Positions 21-12,248 are shown, counted from the stretch's first letter. The stretch: DNA of 12,248 bases from a bacterium (GCA_041739675.1 JBGSNL010000081.1:1-12248), one strand, 5' to 3'. Translations and numbers: made by a program. The notes: generated from the letters alone by a model not told the origin.

Positions 21-64
21 AAAAAAGAGACCGGATTCGAGGAAATCTCCAATCCGGTCTCTTT
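21..64 (-). terminator. Rho-independent terminator of gene A
   Basis: Stem aaagagaccggatt (24-37) pairs with aatccggtctcttt (51-64). The A-run at 21-26 gives a U-tract on the minus strand. It lies 26 nt past the stop codon. Confidence 0.88.
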
Positions 65-90: not shown

Positions 91-474
91 TTACAGCCTG
101 CCAAGCGTGCTCCTGATGGGAGCCATAGCAGGAGTTACTACCGGCAAGCTGGCATGCGCTCTCGTTTGCACCATTGTCCGCGCGCCCGCGACTTGCCGCT
201 GGGCGACTCTCTGGTGCGAGGTTCCAGTTCCACCGGCACCCGCAAGCTGCCCCGCACCGCCCTCAAACGCACCGCCCGATGTTTCGCCTGTGTCTTCCAC
301 CATACCGGTGACGGTCGAATCTGTTGACGGGCCGCTGCGATAAAACGGACGGTTGGTGGAGCTGGACGCGCCGCCGACGAGACCGACTGCGTCGATCCCC
401 GCCCTGAATGCATCTATACTCGTAGGATCATCCGCCATCGTCATATGCGCCGACGCTGGATTCTCGAAGAAATG
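91..474 (-). repeat. Terminal linker + conserved tail, copy in gene A
   Basis: HFFENPASAHMTMADD...AFRAGIDAVGLVGG...RPFYRS...GETSGGAFEGGAGQLAGA...VAGARTMVQTRAHASLPVVTPAMAPIRSTLGRL. Highly similar in DNA to 8028-8402. Confidence 0.92.
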
Positions 475-1977
475 AGCGCTCGCTGGGCCCGATCCTTGCC
501 CACCGCTTCCGGAAGCGCTCGCGACTTTCAGCAAAAGGAATTTTCTCGCGTAATCTTTGAATGCGGCTACAAAATCGGCTGGCGTTCCGACGGTTTCATC
601 AATAAAACCCTCCAGCACACGGTTGAACAGTCCATACTCGTGACCGATGCCGAGCTCATCTCGAATTCGAGCACATACTAACACCAGCTGCGCATCAACT
701 ATTCTATCCATTTGAATTCCAAACTTTTCGCTCATAGTTTCAAGCAACCCATAACTTTTCGGAAAGTCTTCAGCAATCGCGTCCATTTCTCCTGGATTAA
801 TATCGTCATCGTGCCATGAGCCGTCGCTGTAAAAGAAAGGACGCTGTGCGCCCGAACCCGTGACATCCCACACCGAGCGCATATTGCGTATTGCCTCAAG
901 CGTTCCGTCTGAAGATGAATCGGACATGCTTCGGGGTTCCTTCCCAAAATCAAAATAACGAACCGGTTCCTGTCCGCCCGATCCGGCAGCGGTGTGATCG
1001 ACCGTACGGGCCAGATCTTCCGCTTTCTTCTTTTCGGCGGCAATCTGATGCTTGAGCAACTTCACAACAATGATACCGAGAACATCGATGAATGTCTCAG
1101 TCTCGCGGCTAAGGACGTCATAATGTCCGAGGGCACCTTGAAGGATATACCGCTCTCTGCGGACGCTGTCATCATCGGGCATCGCTGATCCCAAGGCCCG
1201 CGACCGTTCGGCCTGACGGTTCAGAAACGACACGCTCTCCCCCAGAACAGTTCTCAGCCGTGCGAGCCTGTTGTCTAGCTCGTCCGCGAATCGTCTCGCC
1301 TGGCGGACACGCAACTCATGCGCCTGATCCTCAGGCCGTCCGCCGCCCGACGCGCCGTCGCTGTAAAAGAACGGACGCCGTGCACCGGAACCGGTGACGT
1401 CCCACACCGAGCGCATGGTGCGAATCGCCTCAAGCGTCCTGTCCGAAGATGCATCGCCCATGCTTGGAGGCACGCGGAACGGTTCATAATATTTGACTCC
1501 CGAGAGGATGCGCATTTCGGCGCTGCCGGGCGACAATAAGACACCGATAGCGGTTCTGACGCGATGTTCGATCATCCTGATTTCATCCTTGCTTAAGGAC
1601 GATCGTCTTGCCCTATCAGCGATTGCGTTGAAGGCCGCTCTGATTTCTTCAATCCGGGTCTTTGTTTTTTGACGGGCACCGGTATTGACCGGGGACCTCA
1701 GCGACTGAAGCAGACGACTCAATTCGGTCTCCAGCTCCCTGATCTCCGAATACACATCCGCAGCATTGGCTGCGGGTGGTTCAGCAGGACCGGTGCGATA
1801 AAACGGCGCGTTAGCCCCGAAACCCATGACATCCCACACCGACGGCTGCCGGCTCATGAGCTCATATGAAGTGTCGGAAGATACAGGGCTCATGCGATAG
1901 AAACCCTCCGCTCGATTCCATGAATGGAGATTATGATAATGAAGTGACGGCAGTTCGGTTCTGGCGCCGGATAACAT
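91..1977 (-). CDS. Gene A: hypothetical modular protein (628 aa) with 4 linker motifs and the conserved C-terminal tail
   Basis: Long ORF. Start reassigned from 2025 to ATG 1977 (MLSGARTE), because this matches the N-termini of C and D, has an AAGGA SD, and ATG 2025 falls inside the promoter motif. Confidence 0.85.
   Translation of the reverse strand: MLSGARTELPSLHYHNLHSWNRAEGFYRMSPVSSDTSYELMSRQPSVWDVMGFGANAPFYRTGPAEPPAANAADVYSEIRELETELSRLLQSLRSPVNTGARQKTKTRIEEIRAAFNAIADRARRSSLSKDEIRMIEHRVRTAIGVLLSPGSAEMRILSGVKYYEPFRVPPSMGDASSDRTLEAIRTMRSVWDVTGSGARRPFFYSDGASGGGRPEDQAHELRVRQARRFADELDNRLARLRTVLGESVSFLNRQAERSRALGSAMPDDDSVRRERYILQGALGHYDVLSRETETFIDVLGIIVVKLLKHQIAAEKKKAEDLARTVDHTAAGSGGQEPVRYFDFGKEPRSMSDSSSDGTLEAIRNMRSVWDVTGSGAQRPFFYSDGSWHDDDINPGEMDAIAEDFPKSYGLLETMSEKFGIQMDRIVDAQLVLVCARIRDELGIGHEYGLFNRVLEGFIDETVGTPADFVAAFKDYARKFLLLKVASASGSGGQGSGPASAHFFENPASAHMTMADDPTSIDAFRAGIDAVGLVGGASSSTNRPFYRSGPSTDSTVTGMVEDTGETSGGAFEGGAGQLAGAGGTGTSHQRVAQRQVAGARTMVQTRAHASLPVVTPAMAPIRSTLGRL
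820..957 (-). repeat. Internal SVWDV-type linker copy in gene A
   Basis: YFDFGKEPRSMSDSSSDGTLEAIRNMRSVWDVTGSGAQRPFFYSDG (46 aa), a near-duplicate of 1354-1491. Confidence 0.9.
1354..1491 (-). repeat. Internal SVWDV-type linker copy in gene A
   Basis: YYEPFRVPPSMGDASSDRTLEAIRTMRSVWDVTGSGARRPFFYSDG (46 aa). Confidence 0.9.
1798..1938 (-). repeat. N-terminal SVWDV-type linker copy in gene A
   Basis: YHNLHSW...MSPVSSDTSYELMSRQPSVWDVMGFGANAPFY. Homologous to the gene D N-terminus. Bases 1814-1852 are identical to 2400-2438. Confidence 0.88.
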
Positions 1978-2015
1978 AATATTTCCTTTTCTTTCCCAGA
2001 CCTCCCCTAGCCGTT

Positions 2016-2042
2016 TTGTCGGCATCTTCTCAAAAAGGTTGC
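2016..2042 (-). promoter_or_regulatory. Sigma28/FliA-like promoter of gene A
   Basis: Minus strand GCAAC-ctttttgagaagat-GCCGACAA. The same motif with a 14-nt spacer precedes all four genes. Confidence 0.75.
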
Positions 2043-2068
2043 GTGGAATTTTTGGCGAAAAAGAGACG

Positions 2069-2107
2069 AAAAAAAGACCGGATTCGAGGAAAACTCCAAT
2101 CCGGTCT
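2069..2107 (-). terminator. Rho-independent terminator of gene B
   Basis: Stem agaccggatt (2075-2084) / aatccggtct (2098-2107), with an A-run at 2069-2075. Confidence 0.88.
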
Positions 2108-2143
2108 CTCGTTACTTGTTATTTGTCTCTAGCTTAATCTCAA

Positions 2144-2509
2144 TTACAGCCTGCCAAGCGTGGTCCTGATGGGAGCCATGGCCGGGGTAACCACCGGCAA
2201 GCTGGCATGTAACCTTGTTTGCACCATTATACGCGCGCCGGCAACTTGCTGCCGGGCGACTCTCTGGTGCGAGGCTCCAGTTCCACCGGCACCCGCAAGC
2301 TGCCCTGCACTGCCCTCAAACGCGCCACCGGAGGTCTCGCCTGTGTCTTCCACGATCCCGGCGACGGTCGATGGAGTGCTGCGGTAAAATGGCGCATTCG
2401 CCCCGAAACCCATGACATCCCACACCGACGGCTGCCGGTTCATCGCGACTGTGCCGTCTGAAGATGCCTCGGCCATGCTTGGAGGTACGCGGGCAGGATC
2501 ATAATACCG
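2144..2509 (-). repeat. Terminal linker (SVWDV-type) + conserved tail, copy in gene B
   Basis: RYYDPARVPPSMAEASSDGTVAMNRQPSVWDVMGFGANAPFYRSTPSTVAG...APIRTTLGRL. Confidence 0.92.
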
Positions 2510-5413
2510 CGCAGCCATAGGGCCCGGCACATTGCCGCCGCCGTTACCGCGCGGTGTCGCGGGCTCCTCGCCGTAATCGAACTCATAAAGAAGGCGCGAC
2601 TGTTCGTTCACACCGTTTTCAGCGGGCCCGCCTTCCAACGCATCTTTATTCCATTCAAAGAGCTCTTCAATCCGCGCCAGGCCCTCTTCGATATCGGGGT
2701 CCATCTCTATCATCTGGCCGCGCTGTCCCGCATAATAGTCCAGAACGGTTTTCAATATTCTCACCGCTTCGCGGCGCGACCCCACAGGATCGGCGGCACC
2801 GTTGAGACCGGCCGCCTCGAGTCTTGTCGCCACATCTCCCGGCACCCGCGCCAAAATGTGTGAGGAGCTGAAACGAACGATGAACGATATCTCCTGCGCG
2901 TTGTAGATAGTTCGGGCTACAGTCTCGGCGGATTCGGGCAGGACTTCTGTATTGGCGACGGAGGCGCCCTTCCGACCCTGCATCTCGATTAAACGCGCAG
3001 CGTCTATGCCGAAATCGGGAATATTTTCTTCGGCGGTCATCGATGACACTCCCAGGAGGCGTGAAATCGACGTCGAGGCAAAGCGCCTGATGCGCGCCGT
3101 CTCAAAGTTGATGAGCTGGCCAAGGAGCCGCGCCCTCTCGGGATACGAAGCGGCGACGGAGAGAATCATGCTCTCGGAGAAACGGACGACGGCCTCCCTC
3201 AACATATAGCCCAAGCGCGGCCAGCCGCCTCCTTTTTGAATCCACTTCAAAACAATTTGATCGATGTCGTCCGGCTCAAACGGCCAAGCCGCCGTTTCGT
3301 GCGCAACTTCCCTTGCCAACAACGGACTCTCGCCCGTGAGTTGCTCTAAAAAGACGGGATTACTGGAATATGCCTTTGCAAATATCTCAATCGCCTTTTC
3401 AATTCTTGCGCGTTGATACGCGTCGGCCGACGGCGAATCGTATCTCAAGCTAAGGTTCATCAATTGCGCGTTGAGGCCTTCTATCTCTTTCTCGTGGGAA
3501 AAGTTTCCATCATGCATCAATGCCCGCACGGTCGCCATTATGTACCCCTTCACGTTACGGAATGGAACGGAACCAAAACCCACGATTCTTCCCGCCATCT
3601 CCCAAACTGCAGGCATGACGCCCTCAATTTGCGCATCGAGAAGGTCCAAAACTCTGTCCACATCTTCCGCCTTAACGTGGTGCTGCCAAAACAGATATTT
3701 CGCCTGATTTACGATATTTGCGGCAAGATAGACCGCGAAATCCTGTTCGTCCAAAAAGCTTTCGCGGTTGTATCGCTTAACTTCGCCGGGCCACGGTTGA
3801 AAAAGAAGCTGGCGAATATTCAGTTGTAAAAACGATATGATCTCTGATCGGGCCTTGACCTCCTCAACGAAACTTTTCATGGCCCTTCTCTGGCTGTCGA
3901 CGCCGGCGCCCGCGCTCAAGGCCTCTTCCCACGCAAGCCTTCGAAGGCCCTCAATTGTGCCCTGCTCAAGGGTAGCGGTGAAATCGTCTGACGGATCACG
4001 ACTGCCATCCTCTTCTTCTCCTCGTCCTTCAGTCAGCTTGAGCTCGAAGCCCAATTCCCTCCAGATTTCGCTGTCCGCCTTCGCGAGCTTTAAGATGCCG
4101 TCTATCTCCATTCCGAATATCGGATCGGACATCACCTCTTTCTCATAGGGCTTGCCCGCGACCGCTTCCGCAACGGTTGCTTTCAGCTCCGCCATGAATT
4201 TTTTGAAAAGTTCTTTTTTGACGTCGTGGCCGAGATTTTTCATCTCAAGCAAACCGTCATCCATCTCCTGACTCACGACGCCCAGAGATGCAAACATTGC
4301 GACCCGCACAGCGACGGCAATGCTTTTCGCGTCCGCTTTTTCCTCTTTCACCGCATCGACCAGCGCCGTGCCGACATCGCTCAATGCGCGGTTGAAAAAG
4401 GCGTCCATCTGCTCAAAAATCGTAATGTACTTTATCCATTTGGCGACTTTTTTGCCGATGAGGGCCAGATCTTCCTGATCGACTCCCTTATACAATTGTC
4501 TTAGTTCCGGCGGCATCCTGAAACCGTCCGCGAGCGCGCGCGCCGCCCGCATCGATGCGTCCTCCGGCGGCGGCAAATCCGCCTCAAAGGCCTCGCTTGA
4601 AACGTTGATGTGCTCCTCTTTAAGCTGACCTTCCATCATGTCTTTCAACCTGTAGACCACAACATCGCGAAATTTCACAAGGGCGCGGGCCTTGAGAAAT
4701 TTCAGGTACTCGTCCAGAATTCCCATATGTTTTGCGACGGCAAATTCCAGAAGCGTGGCCTGATGATGATCGCCGAAGATGCTTTCGCCGTACTCATGCA
4801 CGCCGACAAGGGTGAGAAACGCGAGCCTTGTGCTCTCATCGAGGTCGACGAAGAAATCCTCGACGACGAATGCGTGGCCGTGGACCATGATGCCCGGTGA
4901 ACCCATTTCGACAAGCTCGGGAAGATCGGAACGGCTCACGAGGGCAACCTCAAATTCAAGTCCCAGCGATTCGTCTTTGAAGCGAAGCTTGCGCGCAACC
5001 GCGTAGAGCTCATCATATTTCTCGCTTGAAAGCGGGTTGCGAAGGGTCATCTGAAATGTTTGGGACAGATGGAGCGAAAGCGTCTGCGAACATATGAGAC
5101 TCATTCCGTACGCGCAGGACCCTGCGGGGACCGCGCCGCCGGCCATATGGATTGCGCCTGCGACGATCGCGGAGCCGATGTCCATCGTTTCTTGCTGAGG
5201 TTGCCACCCTGTCACGGTCGATTCACGCAACGCGCTGGGAGTGAAGAAAAAAGGACCGGTCCCGAATCTTGACCGGTATTGTTCAGCAAGTAGACGCTCA
5301 TCTTCAGGCGTCATCTCGCTCCGGGCGACTCTTTCCCTGAACTCGTCCGCCTGTTGCATGACCAGATCGTACAAGCGGTGAAGCTCACCATATAGCTCAG
5401 CTATGATGGGCAT
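2144..5413 (-). CDS. Gene B: hypothetical modular protein (1089 aa) with an HExxE motif and the conserved C-terminal tail
   Basis: 3.27-kb ORF with an AAGGGA SD before ATG 5413. C-terminal linker and tail are shared with A, C and D. Contains VHEYGESIFGDHHQA at about aa 205-219. Confidence 0.88.
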   Translation of the reverse strand: MPIIAELYGELHRLYDLVMQQADEFRERVARSEMTPEDERLLAEQYRSRFGTGPFFFTPSALRESTVTGWQPQQETMDIGSAIVAGAIHMAGGAVPAGSCAYGMSLICSQTLSLHLSQTFQMTLRNPLSSEKYDELYAVARKLRFKDESLGLEFEVALVSRSDLPELVEMGSPGIMVHGHAFVVEDFFVDLDESTRLAFLTLVGVHEYGESIFGDHHQATLLEFAVAKHMGILDEYLKFLKARALVKFRDVVVYRLKDMMEGQLKEEHINVSSEAFEADLPPPEDASMRAARALADGFRMPPELRQLYKGVDQEDLALIGKKVAKWIKYITIFEQMDAFFNRALSDVGTALVDAVKEEKADAKSIAVAVRVAMFASLGVVSQEMDDGLLEMKNLGHDVKKELFKKFMAELKATVAEAVAGKPYEKEVMSDPIFGMEIDGILKLAKADSEIWRELGFELKLTEGRGEEEDGSRDPSDDFTATLEQGTIEGLRRLAWEEALSAGAGVDSQRRAMKSFVEEVKARSEIISFLQLNIRQLLFQPWPGEVKRYNRESFLDEQDFAVYLAANIVNQAKYLFWQHHVKAEDVDRVLDLLDAQIEGVMPAVWEMAGRIVGFGSVPFRNVKGYIMATVRALMHDGNFSHEKEIEGLNAQLMNLSLRYDSPSADAYQRARIEKAIEIFAKAYSSNPVFLEQLTGESPLLAREVAHETAAWPFEPDDIDQIVLKWIQKGGGWPRLGYMLREAVVRFSESMILSVAASYPERARLLGQLINFETARIRRFASTSISRLLGVSSMTAEENIPDFGIDAARLIEMQGRKGASVANTEVLPESAETVARTIYNAQEISFIVRFSSSHILARVPGDVATRLEAAGLNGAADPVGSRREAVRILKTVLDYYAGQRGQMIEMDPDIEEGLARIEELFEWNKDALEGGPAENGVNEQSRLLYEFDYGEEPATPRGNGGGNVPGPMAARYYDPARVPPSMAEASSDGTVAMNRQPSVWDVMGFGANAPFYRSTPSTVAGIVEDTGETSGGAFEGSAGQLAGAGGTGASHQRVARQQVAGARIMVQTRLHASLPVVTPAMAPIRTTLGRL

Positions 5414-5476
5414 ATAATACTTCCCTTATGTCGGCGGAATCGCTTGCGCTGCCCCACGATTTCCCCTTTCGCCCCT

Positions 5477-5503
5477 TTATCGGCGGATATTCAGAATAGT
5501 TGC
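5477..5503 (-). promoter_or_regulatory. Sigma28/FliA-like promoter of gene B
   Basis: Minus strand GCAAC-tattctgaatatcc-GCCGATAA, with a perfect FliA -10 element. Confidence 0.75.
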
Positions 5504-5517
5504 GCGTTTTTTGGAGG

Positions 5518-5549
5518 AAAAAAAGACCGGATTCGGGGGAATCCGGCCT
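5518..5549 (-). terminator. Rho-independent terminator of gene C
   Basis: Stem agaccggattc / gaatccggcct with an A-run at 5518-5524. The single A.C mismatch becomes a G-U pair in the minus-strand RNA. Confidence 0.88.
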
Positions 5550-5576
5550 CTGATCACTTTATTATTTCGATCCAAT

Positions 5577-5948
5577 TTACGGCACAAGGACCTGGGTTCT
5601 GACAGCGGCCAGGGCCGCTACCGGTGTTCTCACCGGTGTTCTTGTTTGCGTCATGACACGGGCGCCGGCAACGTGTTGCCCCACCCTATGCTGCGAGCTT
5701 CCAGCTTGAGAAGCTCCAGCCAAATGTTCTGCACCAGCTTCAAACGCACCGCCTGATGTTTCGCCTGTCTCAACATCCGACATGAGACCCGCGACGGTCG
5801 ACGGAGTGCTGCGGTAAAACGGACGGCTGATGGAACTGAATGCGCCGCCCACAAGACCGACTGCGTCGATTCCCGCCCTAAATGCATCTAAACTCGCAGG
5901 ACCGTCCGCCATCGTCATATATTCCGAGCCGGGAAATTCATAATACCG
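5577..5948 (-). repeat. Terminal linker + divergent tail, copy in gene C
   Basis: The linker is almost identical to gene D (RYYEFPGSEYMTMADG.ASLDAFRAGIDAVGLVGGAFSSISRPFYRSTPSTVAGL). The distal tail has diverged (...VAGARVMTQTRTPVRTPVAALAAVRTQVLVP). Confidence 0.9.
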
Positions 5949-7862
5949 CGCGCTTCCTGAAGGTGATGGGCTCCCGCCGCCTCCGCCGCGAGTTCTCCTC
6001 CTTCCCGTCCTCCCGACATTATCCATTCCCTGACTCGCCAACCAATCCTCCGTCGACATATTCGCCCTTGCCCTGCCGATAGCTTCCCAATCTCTGATTC
6101 CACCCGGCCTCGTTGGCGATTTCTCCAGTTCGGCATCTCTTATTCGCCCGGGAGCTGATTCGTCTCCACCCGCTTCACGTCGTCTCCTGGTTCCTGTTCT
6201 TGCAGTGCCCGAGCTTGTCACCCGTTGCCCGGCTGCCAAGGCATCCTCCACGTAAACGGCCTCGAACTCCCTCCGACCTGTCTGAATAAAGTAAGTGCCG
6301 GGAGGCAACGTCTTAAGTTCTTCGGAAAACTTTCCAAAAATCTCTTCAAGTCTCTCATCGGTGTAAGGCAGCGGAACGGCGCGGGCACTGCTGCGGCTGA
6401 TCGGTGCAAAATATCTCGTGGCCAGAGGAATAAATTTATCGAGCAGCGCGGTCATCCTGTCGGCAACAGGTTGGGATTCAGCCACTGGCCCCGCAAAATA
6501 GTTTCCAAGGACATAGATGAGATCGGCTGTATGACGTCCAATAAGAGTGCCGTAAAGACTGCTTTGGAGATACCTATTGGCCAGCCTTAAAATATCGCTT
6601 TTCGCGACAGTCGGAATACCGCTTGTGATCCTCAAAACGGTATCGATGACTTTTCTTTTAAGATCGTCGATGGGATTATTTCCCAGAGCGATAAAAGTCT
6701 CCATGAATTCGGCGACATCATTAGGATGCATAAATGAATATGAAGCCACGATGAACGCGCCCGAGGCAAGTTTCGTTTCGCCTCTATTTAAAAGGACAAG
6801 CAGCGTCTCAAAGAAAGCGTCTTCCGTGGTATTTTCCGGATCGGTGGTCATCTCAGGCGATCTGGGATCGAAACCCATATCCAAGCGGTGAAGCAACGAA
6901 TCGAAGCTGACAGGAAGTTCCGTGAGCCGAGGGCTAAGCACACTTAAAGCCACGTTGAGCAGACCCATCGCTAAGGGGCGGTTGGTTTTGGCTATCTCAC
7001 CGATCCTCGTCAGGCTGTTAGCGTCCTTCTCGGTGAATTGGCCCAGCTCCAGTTTCTTAATGAAACTCTCGAACCGGCTGTCCGTGGAAATCAGACGCCT
7101 GATTGCCTCCAGCGCCCTGCCATTAGCTGTATAAGCAGGAGAATTTCCATAAGGACCTCTTCTAAGATAATACGGCTCAAGTCCTCCCACGCCGTCGGCG
7201 CCTCCAAACCAGCGAGTTGCAGTGCGTCCCAGTGTTTCACGCGTAGACGCGAGCGAGTCGGATGAATTGGGATCAACCGCCCCGACACCCTGCCACGAGG
7301 ATTCGTAATAACGCGCGGTCCCTGAACGTCGGATACGTCTACCCGACTTCGGTCTCTCAGGAAGGAAATCGAGAAGACCGTTTTTCGAAGCAACGCCGTA
7401 GATTTCATCGATTACTCGAGAGATTGCGGGCGAACGATGTCCTCTCTGGACTATGCCGCCCAAGGCCTTGGCGACCATTTTCAAAATCATCCCTTTCGGG
7501 GTTCCGGCAAATGAAGGATGAAGTTCTTCTGCCGCAAGGGTCACTACATGATGCGCAATGCCGGCGACTGCGTCATCGCTCAGACGCTCGCTCATCATGG
7601 ACAAATTGTTGGCCACTACGCTGAGATGCTGATATAAGACGCTGCTGAAGATTTGAGGCTGGTGAACGACTTCGGTAAAATTGTACCTGCTTACTTCAAC
7701 TTTGCCGTCTAGCCAGTCTATAACCCAGGCCTGCCCTCTCGCAACATCCCCCGAAATTATTACCCTCAACTCCCTGCTCGACTGTTCGTATTCCGAGATC
7801 GGGACTACACGAGTTGTTCCCGCCGGTCTCGATGGACCTTCCGTTCTTGCTCCTGATAACAT
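5577..7862 (-). CDS. Gene C: hypothetical modular protein (761 aa) with a divergent version of the conserved tail
   Basis: Starts MLSGARTEGPS with a GGGGA SD. Has an internal SGTARYYE linker and a C-terminal SGSARYYEFPGSEYMTMADG... linker plus tail. Confidence 0.88.
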   Translation of the reverse strand: MLSGARTEGPSRPAGTTRVVPISEYEQSSRELRVIISGDVARGQAWVIDWLDGKVEVSRYNFTEVVHQPQIFSSVLYQHLSVVANNLSMMSERLSDDAVAGIAHHVVTLAAEELHPSFAGTPKGMILKMVAKALGGIVQRGHRSPAISRVIDEIYGVASKNGLLDFLPERPKSGRRIRRSGTARYYESSWQGVGAVDPNSSDSLASTRETLGRTATRWFGGADGVGGLEPYYLRRGPYGNSPAYTANGRALEAIRRLISTDSRFESFIKKLELGQFTEKDANSLTRIGEIAKTNRPLAMGLLNVALSVLSPRLTELPVSFDSLLHRLDMGFDPRSPEMTTDPENTTEDAFFETLLVLLNRGETKLASGAFIVASYSFMHPNDVAEFMETFIALGNNPIDDLKRKVIDTVLRITSGIPTVAKSDILRLANRYLQSSLYGTLIGRHTADLIYVLGNYFAGPVAESQPVADRMTALLDKFIPLATRYFAPISRSSARAVPLPYTDERLEEIFGKFSEELKTLPPGTYFIQTGRREFEAVYVEDALAAGQRVTSSGTARTGTRRRREAGGDESAPGRIRDAELEKSPTRPGGIRDWEAIGRARANMSTEDWLASQGMDNVGRTGRRRTRGGGGGSPSPSGSARYYEFPGSEYMTMADGPASLDAFRAGIDAVGLVGGAFSSISRPFYRSTPSTVAGLMSDVETGETSGGAFEAGAEHLAGASQAGSSQHRVGQHVAGARVMTQTRTPVRTPVAALAAVRTQVLVP
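7167..7313 (-). repeat. Degenerate internal linker copy in gene C
   Basis: (SGTA)RYYESSWQGVGAVDPNSSDSLASTRETL...FGGADGVGGLEPYY keeps RYYE, SSD and the terminal P-aromatic-aromatic at similar spacing. Confidence 0.65.
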
Positions 7863-7904
7863 ATACTATTCCCCTTTCTTACCCCAGTTGTCCCTTTAGC
7901 CTCT

Positions 7905-7931
7905 TTGTCGGCACCCTGTCAAAAAGGTTGC
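7905..7931 (-). promoter_or_regulatory. Sigma28/FliA-like promoter of gene C
   Basis: Minus strand GCAAC-ctttttgacagggt-GCCGACAA, 43 nt before the ATG (same distance as in gene D). Confidence 0.75.
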
Positions 7932-7957
7932 GCGGTTTTTTTGGGGAAAAAGAGACG

Positions 7958-8001
7958 AAAAAAAGAGACCGGATTCGAGGAAATCTCCAATCCGGTCTCT
8001 T
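7958..8001 (-). terminator. Rho-independent terminator of gene D
   Basis: aaaaaaagagaccggattcgaggaaatctccaatccggtctctt, essentially identical to 21-64. Confidence 0.88.
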
Positions 8002-8027
8002 GTAACTTGTCTCTAGCTTAATCTCAA

Positions 8028-8402
8028 TTACAGCCTGCCAATCGTGGTTCTGATGGGGGCCATGGCCGGGGTTACTACCGGCAAGCTGGCATGTGCTCTC
8101 GTTTGCACCATTGTCCGCGCGCCCGCGACTTGCCGTTGGGCGACTCTCTGATGCGAGGCTCCAGTTCTAGCAGCGCCCGCTAGCTGCCCCGCACCGCCCT
8201 CAAACGCACCGCCCGATGTCTCACCTGTTTCCTCCACGAGACCCGCAACAGTCGACGGAGTGCTGCGGTAAAATGGACGACTGATGGAACTGAACGCGCC
8301 GCCGACGAGACCGACTGCGTCGATCCCCGCCCTGAACGCATCCAAACTCGCGGAACCGTCCGCCATTGTCATATATTCCGAGCCGGGGAATTCGTAGTAT
8401 CG
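8028..8402 (-). repeat. Terminal linker + conserved tail, copy in gene D
   Basis: RYYEFPGSEYMTMADGSASLDAFRAGIDAVGLVGG...APIRTTIGRL. Confidence 0.92.
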
Positions 8403-9785
8403 TGCACCTCCCGAAGATGTCACGCTGCCGCCGCCTGATTGGCTGCTTTGCAGTTGCACGATCTTTTCGTCGACAACTCTCCTTATTCGTCTCAGATAAT
8501 CACCCGTCAAACCATCGTATTCAGCCTTCAAAGCTACGCTCTGAAGTCCTTTTATCGCGCGTGTCACAGCGCTACCTGCATCGTGCCAACTCCCCGCCAG
8601 CGCCCCTTCCACGGCCTCACCACGATGGAATGACTCTGGGTGCCTCATTCTTTCCACATACGCCAATATCCCATCAATCTGCACCGATAGATCGGCTGAA
8701 TCGGCGACCTGCCTAACTTGGAATTGGAGCCGCGTATCATAGCCCCCTCTTTTGAGCACATCAAAGAGTTTGGACTTCGTCTCACTTACAACCCTGGATG
8801 CAGTGGACAGCGCTGAACGCCACTCCAACAGTGTGCCTTCATCTTCAGTGACGTAGTATAGATTTCTTATCGCTTCCGCTTCAATAAGCCGGCGCATCTC
8901 AAGAAGTCTGCCCAACCTAGAAACCTCCGATGACAGCTCTTCAAGCATGTTTCCTTCACCCACAGGAACTGTAGGTGCGGGCCCTGATACCCCCTCATCC
9001 GACAAGAGCTCGGTGACGTCAGGATCTGCGCGGGCGGCGTCTTGGAGGCCTTCGATTGCTTCGGCAGCCTCCGCCTTTATTCGTTCCAAATAATCACCGG
9101 TCAGACCTAAGTATTCAGCTCTTAAAACGACACCCCGAAGTCCGCTTATCGTGCGGGTCACAGCGCTACCTGCATCGCCCCACGTCCTCTCCATTACCCC
9201 TTGCGCAACCTCTCCGTGCTCGTACAATTCGGGGTGCCTCATCCTTTGCACATACGCCAATATTATTTCAATTTCCACGTCCAGGATGGAAAAATCAATG
9301 ATCTGCCTGACCTGGGTTTTGAGTAGCTCTACCTCGTCAGGCGCCAACCCGGAAACTTCTGCCATCATGGCCATTTCCCAAAGTTTGGACTCCATCTCTC
9401 TTCGCCTCTCATATCCAGCGTCCGCTTCGGAAGTCCACTCCGCTATTTTGCGTTTGTCATCCGGAATGGCGCCGAAAAAAAGATTTATCTCCGCTTCCGC
9501 CGCGGCAGTCTTTTGCTCTCTAAGAAGCTCGCCCAATCTTGAAATCTCCTCTGACAGCAGGTCAAAACTTGACCCGCTCTCAGCGCCGCTGGAGCCGCCG
9601 CCAAAATATGGAAAGTTGATACCTGCGCCGGTCATAATATCCCACACCGACGGCTTCCGGCTAATCAATTCATATGTGCCGTCTGGAGACACCGGGCTCA
9701 TTTCAGGTAAGCCTTGCGACACTCTCCATGCATTCAAGTCATAATAATGTAGTGATGGACCTTCGACTTTTGCTCCCGATAACAT
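8028..9785 (-). CDS. Gene D: hypothetical modular protein (585 aa) with a duplicated helical domain and the conserved tail
   Basis: Starts MLSGAKVEGPS with a GGGGA SD. N-terminal linker, two ~170-aa repeats, then C-terminal linker plus tail. Confidence 0.88.
   Translation of the reverse strand: MLSGAKVEGPSLHYYDLNAWRVSQGLPEMSPVSPDGTYELISRKPSVWDIMTGAGINFPYFGGGSSGAESGSSFDLLSEEISRLGELLREQKTAAAEAEINLFFGAIPDDKRKIAEWTSEADAGYERRREMESKLWEMAMMAEVSGLAPDEVELLKTQVRQIIDFSILDVEIEIILAYVQRMRHPELYEHGEVAQGVMERTWGDAGSAVTRTISGLRGVVLRAEYLGLTGDYLERIKAEAAEAIEGLQDAARADPDVTELLSDEGVSGPAPTVPVGEGNMLEELSSEVSRLGRLLEMRRLIEAEAIRNLYYVTEDEGTLLEWRSALSTASRVVSETKSKLFDVLKRGGYDTRLQFQVRQVADSADLSVQIDGILAYVERMRHPESFHRGEAVEGALAGSWHDAGSAVTRAIKGLQSVALKAEYDGLTGDYLRRIRRVVDEKIVQLQSSQSGGGSVTSSGGARYYEFPGSEYMTMADGSASLDAFRAGIDAVGLVGGAFSSISRPFYRSTPSTVAGLVEETGETSGGAFEGGAGQLAGAARTGASHQRVAQRQVAGARTMVQTRAHASLPVVTPAMAPIRTTIGRL
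8448..9563 (-). repeat. Two-copy internal domain duplication in gene D (about 9042-9563 and 8448-8946)
   Basis: ILAYVQRMRHPE...DAGSAVTRTISGL...AEYLGLTGDYLERI versus ILAYVERMRHPE...DAGSAVTRAIKGL...AEYDGLTGDYLRRI. The 21-mer gtcacagcgctacctgcatcg occurs at 8563 and 9157 (594-bp offset). Confidence 0.9.
9603..9749 (-). repeat. N-terminal SVWD-type linker copy in gene D
   Basis: HYYDLNAW...MSPVSPDGTYELISRKPSVWDIMTGAGINFPYF. Confidence 0.85.
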
Positions 9786-9827: not shown

Positions 9828-9854
9828 TTGTCGGCTGGTTGTCAAAGAAGTTGC
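9828..9854 (-). promoter_or_regulatory. Sigma28/FliA-like promoter of gene D
   Basis: Minus strand GCAAC-ttctttgacaacca-GCCGACAA. Confidence 0.75.
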
Positions 9855-9873: not shown

Positions 9874-10200
9874 GTGTCACAGGAGGCTGTGCGTGCGGCG
9901 CATTGCCGGGAGACGGCGGGGGCCCCATCGCGGCAAGCGGGCGGTGGAAACCTCGGCAGAATTGCGGTGTCAAAACGCGATTTGAAGATCAGGGGACACT
10001 TCTCGCTTCAGAAGAGGGGACGTTTCTCATTTTCACATGAGCTGCACGCGAACAGGAGAAACGTCCCCTCCTTGAGAAGTGTCCCCCATCAAATCGCAGT
10101 TTTGACTCGCAATTTGAGCGAGGAGGGTTTGCCGCCCGCGAGACCGCGAAAGGGGAGCCGCCGGAGGCAGAAGCGCCGCACGCACAGCCTCCCGTGACAC
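9874..10200. repeat. 327-bp nested imperfect inverted repeat (MITE/REPIN-like element or rod-shaped RNA)
   Basis: Terminal arms 9874-9901 and 10173-10200 match at 27/28. Pairing continues inward with internal loops. Perfect inner IRs at 9992-10004/10074-10086 and 10014-10028/10056-10070. Confidence 0.85.
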
Positions 10201-10242: not shown

Positions 10243-12248
10243 ATGTCACCTGACGAGACAAGCGGATCCACAAAGCAACCCAAGGCAAATGTCGGCCAAT
10301 ACTATCTCATGGAGAAGATCGCCCAAGGGGGAATGGCCGAAATTTACAAGGGACTCTCCTACGATCTTCACGGCCTCAAGAAGACCGTCGTCATAAAAAA
10401 GATTCTGCCCCACATCTCGGCATCCAAAGAATTCATTGATTCGCTTATAGATGAAGCAAAGATCGCGGTTTCACTTTCGCACGGCAACATCGCGCAGATC
10501 TACGATCTGGGGAAAGTTGGCGAGGACTATTTCATGGTGATGGAATATGTCGAAGGAAAATCGCTCTCGCTCATCCACAAGAAGTGCATGGCGCAGGGAC
10601 GCCTCATCCCCATCGCCTATCTTTGCCACTTCATGAGCGAGGCCCTTGCGGGGCTGGACTACATGCACAGAAGGACGGACGAGAAAGGCCGCCCGCTCCA
10701 CATCATCCACCGCGATATCAGCCCGCAAAACCTCGTCGTCACATATTCGGGAACGGTCAAGATCATCGATTTCGGGATCGCAAAATCGGCGATCAAAATA
10801 GGAACAACCGATTCCGGCATCTTAAAAGGAAAATTTTCGTACATGTCGCCCGAACAGGCGCGCGGCGATTCGATAGATCACAGAAGCGATATTTTTTCGC
10901 TGGGAATTATCTTTCACGAGATGCTCACGGGCAAGCGCCTCTTCAAGACCGATGACACGCGCGAAACTTTGCGAAACGTGAGACGCGCGAAAGTCGATCC
11001 GCCCTCCACCTTCCGCGGCGATCTGGCCGACGAGCTGGACCGCATCGTCATGAAAGCGCTCTCAAAGGACCGCCGCCACCGCTACGCATTCGCGTCCGAC
11101 ATGCACGACGATCTCATAAAATTTATCTCCACTGCATATCCCGAATTCCAATCCTCAGAGGCGGGGGATTTTGTGCGCGAGATATTTGAAGACGAGATAT
11201 CAAAGGCCTCTGAAGAGGAGGAGATGAAAACTCCTCAGATGATAATCGATCACACCTCGTCCGCGCTCACGGATGAAAGCCAGATGGAAGTCACCGGCCA
11301 GGCCAAGGCCCCTCTCGATATGAAGGATTTCCTGCTTGAGGAGGAGGAAGAGCCGCGCGAGGAAACCGAAGGCGAGACACCTGCGAGACACATACCCGAG
11401 ATCGCGGTGATTGAGGACGAATCCGAATTCATGAAGGTGAAGCATAAGGCCCCTTCGCGCCTTCTCAAAAAATATCTGGGCGCGATCTTGGGCGGGATAA
11501 GCATCGTTTTTCTTCTCATCTCCATCTTCTCGTCTTTCAAGGTGTGGAAGAGCGAGCCCGCAGGGCCCGGCGCGGCGAAGGCGGAGATACTGGTGACCAC
11601 AAATCCGCCCGATGCATCCATAATTTTTGACGACAAACACATCGGCACAGGCTCGCCCATCGCCATCCACGATATAAAAATCGATGAGGAGCACACGATC
11701 ACCGCGCAGCGCGAGGGATACGTCCCGCAAACTCAAAAGGTGAAGCTCAGAGAGGACGAATTCAAGAGCCTTGAGATCACGCTCACGAAGGCCGTGAGCA
11801 CAAAGTGCACGGTCATCGTGTCGTCCACGCCTCCCGGCGCCACGGTTTTTGTCGATGACGTTGAAACTCCGCACCGCACACCCGCGACCATAAAGGATAT
11901 CGAGACGGGCAAGCGCCATACGCTGGGCCTGTTCATGAGCGGATACCAGTTCTGGAGCAAGAATTTTGAAGCACACGAGGGTGAGACGCAGAATTTCGAC
12001 GTGGGGCTCGTGAAAAATTTCGGCTCGCTTTCCATCGATTCGTCGCCCGTCGGAGCGCTCGTGATGTTAAACGATCTTCCGTCGGGACAAACACCGTTTA
12101 TTCTGGACAACATCGAGCCGCAGAAGGTGTACCGCGTAGAGGTCTGGCTTGAAGGATACGAGCCCTATCTTCAGGAAGTACAAATAGATGCCGGTAAAAA
12201 ACAGGAACTGCACGTGACGCTAAAAAAATTGCCGATGATACCCGTTCC
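10243..12248 (+). CDS. Hanks-type Ser/Thr protein kinase with TM helix and at least 3 PEGA-like repeats (3' end truncated by the window)
   Basis: Translated by hand and open to the window end. Kinase motifs: IAQGGMAEIY, VVIKK, HGNIAQIYD, HRDISPQN, DFG, GKFSYMSPEQ, RSDIFSLG. Then an acidic linker, TM YLGAILGGISIVFLLISIFSSF (about 11473-11538), and repeats ILVTTNPPDASI..EGY, VIVSSTPPGATVFVD..SGY, LSIDSSPVGALVMLN..EGY. Confidence 0.95.
   Translation, partial: MSPDETSGSTKQPKANVGQYYLMEKIAQGGMAEIYKGLSYDLHGLKKTVVIKKILPHISASKEFIDSLIDEAKIAVSLSHGNIAQIYDLGKVGEDYFMVMEYVEGKSLSLIHKKCMAQGRLIPIAYLCHFMSEALAGLDYMHRRTDEKGRPLHIIHRDISPQNLVVTYSGTVKIIDFGIAKSAIKIGTTDSGILKGKFSYMSPEQARGDSIDHRSDIFSLGIIFHEMLTGKRLFKTDDTRETLRNVRRAKVDPPSTFRGDLADELDRIVMKALSKDRRHRYAFASDMHDDLIKFISTAYPEFQSSEAGDFVREIFEDEISKASEEEEMKTPQMIIDHTSSALTDESQMEVTGQAKAPLDMKDFLLEEEEEPREETEGETPARHIPEIAVIEDESEFMKVKHKAPSRLLKKYLGAILGGISIVFLLISIFSSFKVWKSEPAGPGAAKAEILVTTNPPDASIIFDDKHIGTGSPIAIHDIKIDEEHTITAQREGYVPQTQKVKLREDEFKSLEITLTKAVSTKCTVIVSSTPPGATVFVDDVETPHRTPATIKDIETGKRHTLGLFMSGYQFWSKNFEAHEGETQNFDVGLVKNFGSLSIDSSPVGALVMLNDLPSGQTPFILDNIEPQKVYRVEVWLEGYEPYLQEVQIDAGKKQELHVTLKKLPMIPV

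Follow-up and report, generated by a model that had tools for sequence, protein, structure and literature searches.

The question raised by this locus is what role is played by a segment of about 45 residues that recurs within and between the predicted proteins of a gene array in an uncultured bacterium. The array occupies contig C36 of genome G000 (1.9 Mb, 94.6% complete), which we analysed over its whole length of 12,248 nucleotides (the window). Four minus-strand genes, D, C, B and A, are oriented away from a Ser/Thr kinase gene there, and a second contig, C37, carries in order genes E, F and G, of the same build, H, which has only the C-terminal tail, and then sctU. We call the recurrent segment the joint. 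Our preferred reading, to which we give a probability of roughly 45%, is that the joint would be an uncleaved docking segment of predicted modular type III secretion substrates and would double as a recombination joint. The recombination role taken by itself appears highly probable from the DNA, and would hold whether the segment serves docking, cleavage or binding.

The nine copies counted in the window by the original prediction (four in A, one in B, two each in C and D) are all present, on the minus strand and 42-50 residues long, and ten more in E, F and G bring the total to 19 in seven genes. The window copies are as follows:

9600..9746, minus strand, joint D1: type I, residues 14-62
8265..8399, minus strand, joint D2: type II, residues 463-507, immediately before the tail
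7161..7310, minus strand, joint C1: divergent copy, residues 185-234
5811..5945, minus strand, joint C2: type II, residues 640-684, before the tail
2381..2506, minus strand, joint B1: type I, residues 970-1011, before the tail
1795..1938, minus strand, joint A1: type I, residues 14-61
1363..1491, minus strand, joint A2: type I, residues 163-205
829..957, minus strand, joint A3: type I, residues 341-383
337..471, minus strand, joint A4: type II, residues 503-547

Copy A4 falls outside the span of 820..9749 first quoted for the set. Eight of the nine divide into two subtypes, as had been described, type I (SVWD; A1, A2, A3, B1 and D1) and type II (DAFRAG; A4, C2 and D2), and the remaining copy, C1, fits neither, with a leave-one-out E value of 0.004 among 1,449 proteins, where each of the other eight reaches E<1e-14. 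We count C1 as a member of the family because in P0016, a foreign protein, the copy is C1-like in its first half (YESSWQ) and of type I in its second. The two types are weakly alike (hhalign probability 24%, E 8e-4; E<0.01 is reached by 3 of 7 type II copies when they are scored with the type I profile) and are linked mainly through hybrid copies, namely G1, in which a type I first half precedes a type II-like second half, G2, G3 and the copy in P0016. Their common core consists of [HRK]-aromatic-aromatic-[DEN], [SA][SAM]D, a short helix, [WI]D[VA]xG and P-aromatic-aromatic. The first of these blocks, written as [HRK][YFH][YFH][DEN], occurs in all 19 joints and nowhere else in the 5,680 residues encoded by genes A-G, where about 1.8 occurrences would be expected at the proteome rate. 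When the proteome was searched with a profile of the 19 copies, these scored E<1e-10 (as the training set), the next native match E 0.9 and the best reversed-proteome decoy E 0.63, a gap which argues that the family is not a product of chance. The motif is uncatalogued in Pfam, NCBIfam and the PDB: 0 NCBIfam families and 0 PDB sequences matched, Pfam returned only a weak DUF1965 match for 2 of 21 members (best E 0.0045), and Atlas gave no usable match. A literature search by concept and phylum name, not by motif letters, returned no paper on the joint motif or the locus. EF-hand calcium loops follow the consensus D-x-[DNS]-x-[DNS]-G-x-apolar-x-x-x-E; this assignment was rejected, since some copies agree with it over positions 1-9 (DxSxDG(T)LE) and then lack an acidic residue at position 12, and there is no Pfam match.

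In this seven-gene family the joint bounds predicted cargo modules that are swappable between proteins. The architectures of the window genes are:

8028..9785, minus strand, gene D, 585 residues: MLSGAK tag, joint D1, two duplicated helical domains, joint D2, tail
5577..7862, minus strand, gene C, 761 residues: MLSGAR tag, cargo, joint C1, cargo, joint C2, tail
2144..5413, minus strand, gene B, 1089 residues: 969-residue cargo, joint B1, tail
91..1977, minus strand, gene A, 628 residues from the MLSGAR start: four joints, three helical cargo modules, tail

None of the four genes has a Pfam match above cut-off, and the open frame of gene A extends to 2025, beyond the MLSGAR start. The earlier claim that joints stand at domain boundaries is borne out. 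Among 16 segments compared all against all, two pairs matched: cargo A384-502 and F268-381 correspond over the full stretch between joints (64%), and cargo A206-320 corresponds to E62-180, starting at the joint. In P0016, a joint lies between a module found joint-free in C15:1808 and a D-like domain. A structural model of A has helical blocks at 72-158, 215-331 and 395-488, between joints that appear as low-confidence coil with one short helix; Foldseek with this model gave no match at E 0.001. Cargo is flanked by joints on both sides in D, A, E and F, a joint stands immediately before the tail in six of the seven genes, and one occupies residues 14-61 in five of the seven, the other 14 of the 19 copies being internal or pre-tail. 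The Gly/Ser-rich surroundings noted earlier are also real, with Gly, Ser and Pro making up 54% of the 14 residues before internal copies against 22% overall. The boundary rule is not strict, since no joint is found between the duplicated domains of D, in the 969 residues of B, at the start of C or in H.

The joint copies, which are 70-92% identical in DNA, appear to be mosaics, likely formed by crossovers inside the joint. Their nearest neighbours differ block by block: the 5′ part of A1 is E1-like (86% nucleotide identity) and its 3′ part B1-like (92%), gene B has a type I joint fused at PFYR to an F-like tail (90% nucleotide identity) while the corresponding joint of F is type II, and D2 is C2-like while the tail of D is A-like. 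MaxChi gave p<=1e-4 for the best 12 of 252 type I triplets, picked out by a preliminary screen of 500 permutations, the smallest value of 5e-5 becoming 0.013 after Bonferroni correction; the breakpoints lie behind SSD, close to SVW and at PF. The A1/B1 junction lacks an independent bridge, because the X1 contigs, which cover all 30 bins, end at a short repeat that occurs in both A1 and B1; most of the mosaics are independent of this junction. A set of listed joints that look like paralogue cross-mapping was set aside. The whole unit, promoter and hairpin included, has been duplicated. Together with the mosaic identity of the copies, this would also suit a view in which the joints are remnants of duplicated gene starts, homogenised by gene conversion and devoid of any role as protein. 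We consider such an origin very improbable, given that silent changes far exceed replacements and that the joint is twice as conserved as cargo between species.

Indeed, the codon pattern indicates that the joint is under purifying selection at the protein level, as had been anticipated. Between D2 and C2, about 14 of 34 silent sites differ and only 1 of 101 replacement sites does (Fisher p 5e-9). Pooled pairwise ratios of nonsynonymous to synonymous change (dN/dS; Nei-Gojobori, pairs not independent) are 0.24 for type II joints, 0.42 and 0.48 for type I joints and 0.37 for tails, and three cargo pairs gave 0.64, 0.73 and 0.33, the last near saturation. The foreign protein P0015 carries the gene E unit of joint I, cargo and joint II, its joints being 58% and 69% identical to those of E and the cargo between them 31%; its tail, 29% identical to that of E, is of a different kind. 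In P0016 the joint is 63% identical and the next domain 29%. The codon pattern and the retention of joints in P0015 alongside a different tail thus argue that the joint has a role as protein, independent of this tail, and the codon pattern contradicts and largely refutes the idea of a relic at the DNA level.

As to what that role may be, the genome encodes a non-flagellar type III apparatus: SctR, SctN and SctV pass the NCBIfam cut-offs, SctU scores 356 of 358, SctT and SctL fall below cut-off, SctJ and a FliK-like domain are present, and no flagellin was found in the genome. At each of genes A, B, C and D there is an upstream element, resembling a sigma28 promoter, and a downstream hairpin:

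9829..9854, minus strand, predicted sigma28-like promoter of D, GCAAC-N14-GCCGACA
7906..7931, minus strand, predicted sigma28-like promoter before C
5478..5503, minus strand, predicted sigma28-like promoter before B
2017..2042, minus strand, predicted sigma28-like promoter before A
7967..7997, minus strand, terminator-like hairpin 3′ of D
5522..5551, minus strand, terminator-like hairpin 3′ of C
2076..2106, minus strand, terminator-like hairpin 3′ of B
29..59, minus strand, terminator-like hairpin 3′ of A

The promoter pattern, predicted to extend across the order, is GCAAC-N13-16-GCCGA[TC]A, with an unusual −35 box, and is listed for G001-G004 and G007 as GCAAC-N13-16-GCCGATAA; its −10 box, CCGATA, matches the Bdellovibrio FliA box given in a passage of PMC3627812. 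It precedes 12 of the 38 genes that encode the tail, against 29 of 1,411 others. Six of the eight array genes have it (the upstream region of E is cut off, and H lacks it), as do 6 of the 30 other tail genes (p 5e-5). It also stands before C5:16686, the first gene of the SctJ cluster, and has 14-42 exact copies in each of five of five relatives, with 0 reversed-control matches. A FliA-like sigma factor is encoded inside the type III cluster, split over the ends of C5 and C87. Of the 38 tail proteins, 10 begin with a start tag, M-x-[SAG]-G-[GA], and five of these 10 are array paralogues; among the 1,411 others the count is 9. These figures come from automatic gene starts, which missed A; B has no tag. 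This tag is the MLSGA[RK] start in which an echo of the joint's entry motif had been seen: the tag is there, seven residues away from the aromatic pair. Type III effectors have an unstructured N-terminal signal of 20-25 residues and no Sec peptide. Residues 1-67 of the model of A have low predicted local distance difference test (pLDDT) values, and no hydrophobic signal peptide is visible by eye at the starts of the array proteins.

Alternatively, export may follow a different pathway (type II, Tad or another contact system), or the proteins may remain intracellular, the adjacency to sctU then being incidental. The genome does have a type II-like cluster and a second secretin (two secretins in all), the other tail genes are scattered over about 16 contigs and the promoter is broad. 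We regard these routes as improbable in view of the missing signal peptides, the occurrence of the start tag and promoter also at genes from the type III cluster or for type III-like substrates, and the failure to find the coupling protein VirD4 (PF02534) in this genome at its 94.6% completeness; 1 of 22 genomes of the order has it.

The mechanism that we favour would run as follows. Each gene would be transcribed alone from a sigma28-like promoter shared with the type III operon, the M-x-S-G-[GA] start would be the export tag, and the joint at residues 14-61 would sit at the position of a chaperone-binding domain. Internal and pre-tail joints would give each added module a handle of its own, for a chaperone or for the export platform, and such handles would let long multi-module chains stay exportable. 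With every handle also being a DNA repeat, recombination from handle to handle could add, remove and swap modules and tails in frame. Docking is preferred because of the position of the N-terminal copy, the precedent of a second site in Tir, the large conserved length and the fact that no protease was found. Chaperone-binding domains fall within about residues 15-140. Those of SptP (35-139) and YopE (17-85) lie right behind the N-terminal signal and are extended when unbound, as passages in PMC13466201 describe, and according to part of PMC6114900 Tir has a second, C-terminal CesT site, so that one effector can carry two.

The polyprotein originally envisaged, in which the joint would be a protease recognition or self-cleavage module freeing cargo from leader, neighbours and tail, draws on the same architecture, namely cargo flanked on both sides and joints ahead of tails. 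Cuts could fall, for instance, C-terminal to the near-invariant Asp of SSD/MAD, or C-terminal to the basic residue that precedes the aromatic pair and is present in 19 of 19 copies; Asp, Gly and Pro are conserved in at least 90% of 21 joint copies, the flanks are rich in Gly, Ser and Pro, and MARTX toxins are cut between effector domains (a passage in PMC6315884). We find this rather unlikely, as the array proteins gave no match to a Pfam peptidase family and the genome gave none to PF11713 (where the control was silent too), and as the duplicated domains of D and the 969 residues of B run on without a joint. The proposed common entry and cleavage site, SGxAR followed by YYE, did not hold: strict SGxAR precedes only 3 of the 19 copies (C1, C2 and D2). 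Furthermore, some 45 conserved residues in two diverged types far exceed what a protease site usually needs.

A third role for the joint would be to bind membranes, other joints or a component of the prey or host, thereby gathering cargo at one place after delivery. It would suit a segment that is multivalent (up to four per chain), 15% aromatic and apparently unfolded when predicted alone (pLDDT 57, predicted template modelling score 0.17, no confident fold, a short central helix), that is dispensable for most tail proteins, and that persists between species although the tail has been exchanged, as would follow if its partner were something other than the lineage-specific export label. We hold it to be unlikely, because the tag-adjacent copy at 14-61, found in five of the seven genes and in C25:17613, matches the position of an export domain, and because no structural or family match to a known binding motif was obtained.

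Several points weigh against docking at a type III apparatus. About 31 of the 38 tail proteins, including H within the array, have no joint, and together with the B homologues, which also lack it, they argue that the joint is not needed for export in general. A long conserved C-terminal tail is not known as a feature of type III substrates. The candidate handle has no binding partner among the chaperones searched for: the CesT-type class I chaperone (PF05932) was not found in 41 genomes, in which the control was also silent, and two SycD-like genes fall below cut-off and lie beside other, translocator-like genes. Known chaperone-binding domains, as described in a passage of PMC13466201, share no sequence, unlike the joint copies. 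The promoter pattern was derived from the array itself and is not specific to type III genes, as it also precedes smc- and recN-like genes (judged by their N-termini) and many signal-peptide genes. The model of A is a single-sequence model with a mean pLDDT of 42, its third block scoring 31-39, and the joining of C36 to C37 rests on inference from relatives. Finally, one of the three cargo pairs, which are not independent, has a dN/dS of 0.33, as low as that of joints, and uneven selection could add to the mosaic signals.

By analogy, the array would work like modular type III effectors and cassette-exchange toxin systems. In polymorphic toxins, such as contact-dependent inhibition (CDI) systems, Rhs proteins and the effector-immunity arrays of type VI secretion systems (T6SS), conserved coding stretches provide the homology for swapping variable domains. 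The array resembles them in exchanging variable domains at a conserved homology block, with breakpoints in the conserved blocks of the joint, and differs in having several internal modules rather than one C-terminal toxin, a conserved tail at the C-terminus and no immunity gene after its genes. MARTX toxins likewise combine several effector modules in one chain, and a passage in PMC6315884 describes their module content as altered by recombination. The array proteins are 585-1089 residues long and have no repeat families (no RTX repeats were found) and no detectable cysteine protease domain. MARTX toxins run to thousands of residues, with RTX-type repeat regions at both ends, and their inter-domain sites are not known to form a conserved family of 45 residues. 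On the membership features tested, the array fails as a MARTX toxin, as a polymorphic toxin and as a type IV substrate with a basic C-terminal signal. What it has in common with type III effectors is a segment, apparently extended when unbound, that directly follows a short N-terminal tag, and a non-flagellar type III apparatus encoded in the same genome; it differs in carrying up to four homologous copies, which precede most modules and the 70-residue tail, in the shared sequence of these copies, where known chaperone-binding domains share none, and in that searches yielded no class I chaperone. In 2006 Stavrinides reportedly described terminal reassortment of effectors of type III systems. 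Related passages appear in PMC6460904. In that process, too, chimeric effectors arise through exchange of parts between genes that share export elements; in the array the exchange point is a repeated internal coding joint, and tails are exchanged besides leaders. Passages in PMC12075869 and PMC12428579 treat the effectors of the Myxococcus T3SS*, and the effectors and export signals of type III systems in predatory delta-type bacteria, as still hypothetical. Like Myxococcus, this genome represents a delta-type lineage that has a type III apparatus, and the −10 box is common to the Bdellovibrio FliA regulon and the array; the differences are a −35 box of GCAAC rather than TTAAG, the failure to find flagellin, and an organism that is only putatively predatory.

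The locus offers candidate sequence marks for type III effectors, namely the start tag, the repeated joint, the tail on about 38 proteins and the promoter. A coding repeat kept for its role in the protein, and letting whole modules reshuffle in frame, would be a compact means of diversifying multi-domain proteins. In its fullest and doubtful form, the proposal is of a new combinatorial effector platform in which one 45-residue peptide would be the export handle, release point and recombination joint of every cargo module. This doubtful platform, in a putatively predatory lineage, would further rely on an N-terminal tag, on a lineage-specific tail of 70 residues and on a promoter of the sigma28 type dedicated to it. 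If true, these marks would list effectors of type III systems aimed at bacteria, so far unidentified. Generality is limited by the rarity of the joint, which is confined to this genome and two foreign protein clusters.

In a phylum of 93 genomes from one class, which may be UBA10199, the 19-copy profile had no match in the 92 genomes other than this one. Among 1.84 billion representative proteins it matched 11: six from the own genome, the foreign P0015 and P0016, and P0017, P0018 and P0019. Of these last three, two (P0017 and P0019) are repeat proteins without relation to the family and were set aside; P0018 had 0 matched stretches. The P0016 cluster has four members, and P0015 is a single protein on a 1.4-kb contig, the only hit besides own-genome proteins in a second joint search. 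L105, the sole metagenome match, is a chance match in another frame. No joint was found in 799 open reading frames downstream of the promoter in G001, G003 and G007 (17-20 regions per genome). Within the genome, C25:17613-21593 (L133:2613-6593) encodes a 1,303-residue protein with the start MFAGART, a D-like domain and a diverged joint (pairwise E 6e-5 against the N-terminus of D; type I profile E 0.014). This protein has two internal motifs resembling the head of the tail (STVYGRVD), a long apolar C-terminal region and no tail, and shares the spacer GGSHGNG with P0016.

The tails of the window proteins are:

8031..8255, minus strand, tail of D: STVxGL..TGETSGG, Arg-rich, apolar end
5580..5801, minus strand, tail of C
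2147..2371, minus strand, tail of B, 90% identical in nucleotides to the F tail
94..318, minus strand, tail of A

The tail is common to 38 open reading frames of this genome (36 complete or almost complete, the rest at contig edges) and to two fragments, as counted with a profile iterated on its own 38 frames. The pattern of its head occurs at 36 places in 1,449 genes, 31 of which lie 64-74 residues from the C-terminus of tail proteins. In P0012, P0015 and P0016 it is replaced by another tail. No convincing match was obtained in the 92 other genomes, with weak matches in G007, G037 and G056, those in G007 and G037 being rejected as they fall on no tail-bearing protein, nor among 5.8 billion proteins outside this genome (7,997 candidates scored). 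The same-genus G001 has visibly related, diverged tails. Named cargoes of tail proteins are HD, SNF2 helicase, HATPase and a weak B12-binding domain, and 29 of the 34 tail proteins scanned had no Pfam match at E 0.01. About 30 further tail proteins, with unrelated cargoes, lie on 16 contigs (C2, C14, C15, C18, C20, C24, C30, C47, C54, C59, C60, C61, C71, C72, C82 and C86).

Some cargoes merit separate mention. Gene G (L018:5725-8751) has an HD_4 cargo, a SpoT-like hydrolase, between joints G2 and G3, similar to C41:6642-8864. Gene D contains an internal duplication (8483-8729 and 9077-9323 of the window, 72-76% nucleotide identity) with no joint between the copies. The B homologues P0012 and P0013 have neither the joint nor this tail, P0012 ending in a different Met/Pro-rich tail. 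A HEYGE...HH...E motif at residues ~100-260 of B, a possible metal site, is conserved in P0012 and P0013, and the L-x-L-S-Q repeat ahead of it presumably recalls sigma54 region I. A Cys-His-Asp protease in B was rejected, as the Cys is absent from both homologues, and Atlas matches to the putative protease region (scores 0.79-0.82) lie within the chance range. The SycD-like tetratricopeptide repeat (TPR) genes L132:432-2313 and L108:3-1075 each lie beside a helical translocator-like gene, forming a candidate translocon.

The left flank of the insertion site is the kinase gene:

10243..12248, plus strand, Ser/Thr kinase with PEGA domains, adjoining sctU in relatives

The kinase gene and sctU are neighbours in four of five relatives, ~100-200 bp apart, and lie on separate contigs in G003. 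In this genome they flank the array, on C36 and C37, which are thus probably two halves of one array of >20 kb inserted between them. Intergenic gaps are 128-170 bp and contain a hairpin and usually a promoter, with no small candidate immunity gene between neighbours. The 702-bp gap between E and F (L018:2110-2812, C37) encodes a RelBE-like toxin-antitoxin pair, named by eye from the translation. At 9874-10200 of the window, between array and kinase gene, lies a 327-bp palindromic element with 28-bp terminal inverted repeats, which resembles a miniature inverted-repeat transposable element (MITE) or a repetitive extragenic palindrome (REP); a second full copy lies on C35 (82%), and shorter copies of its central part are numerous across the genome.

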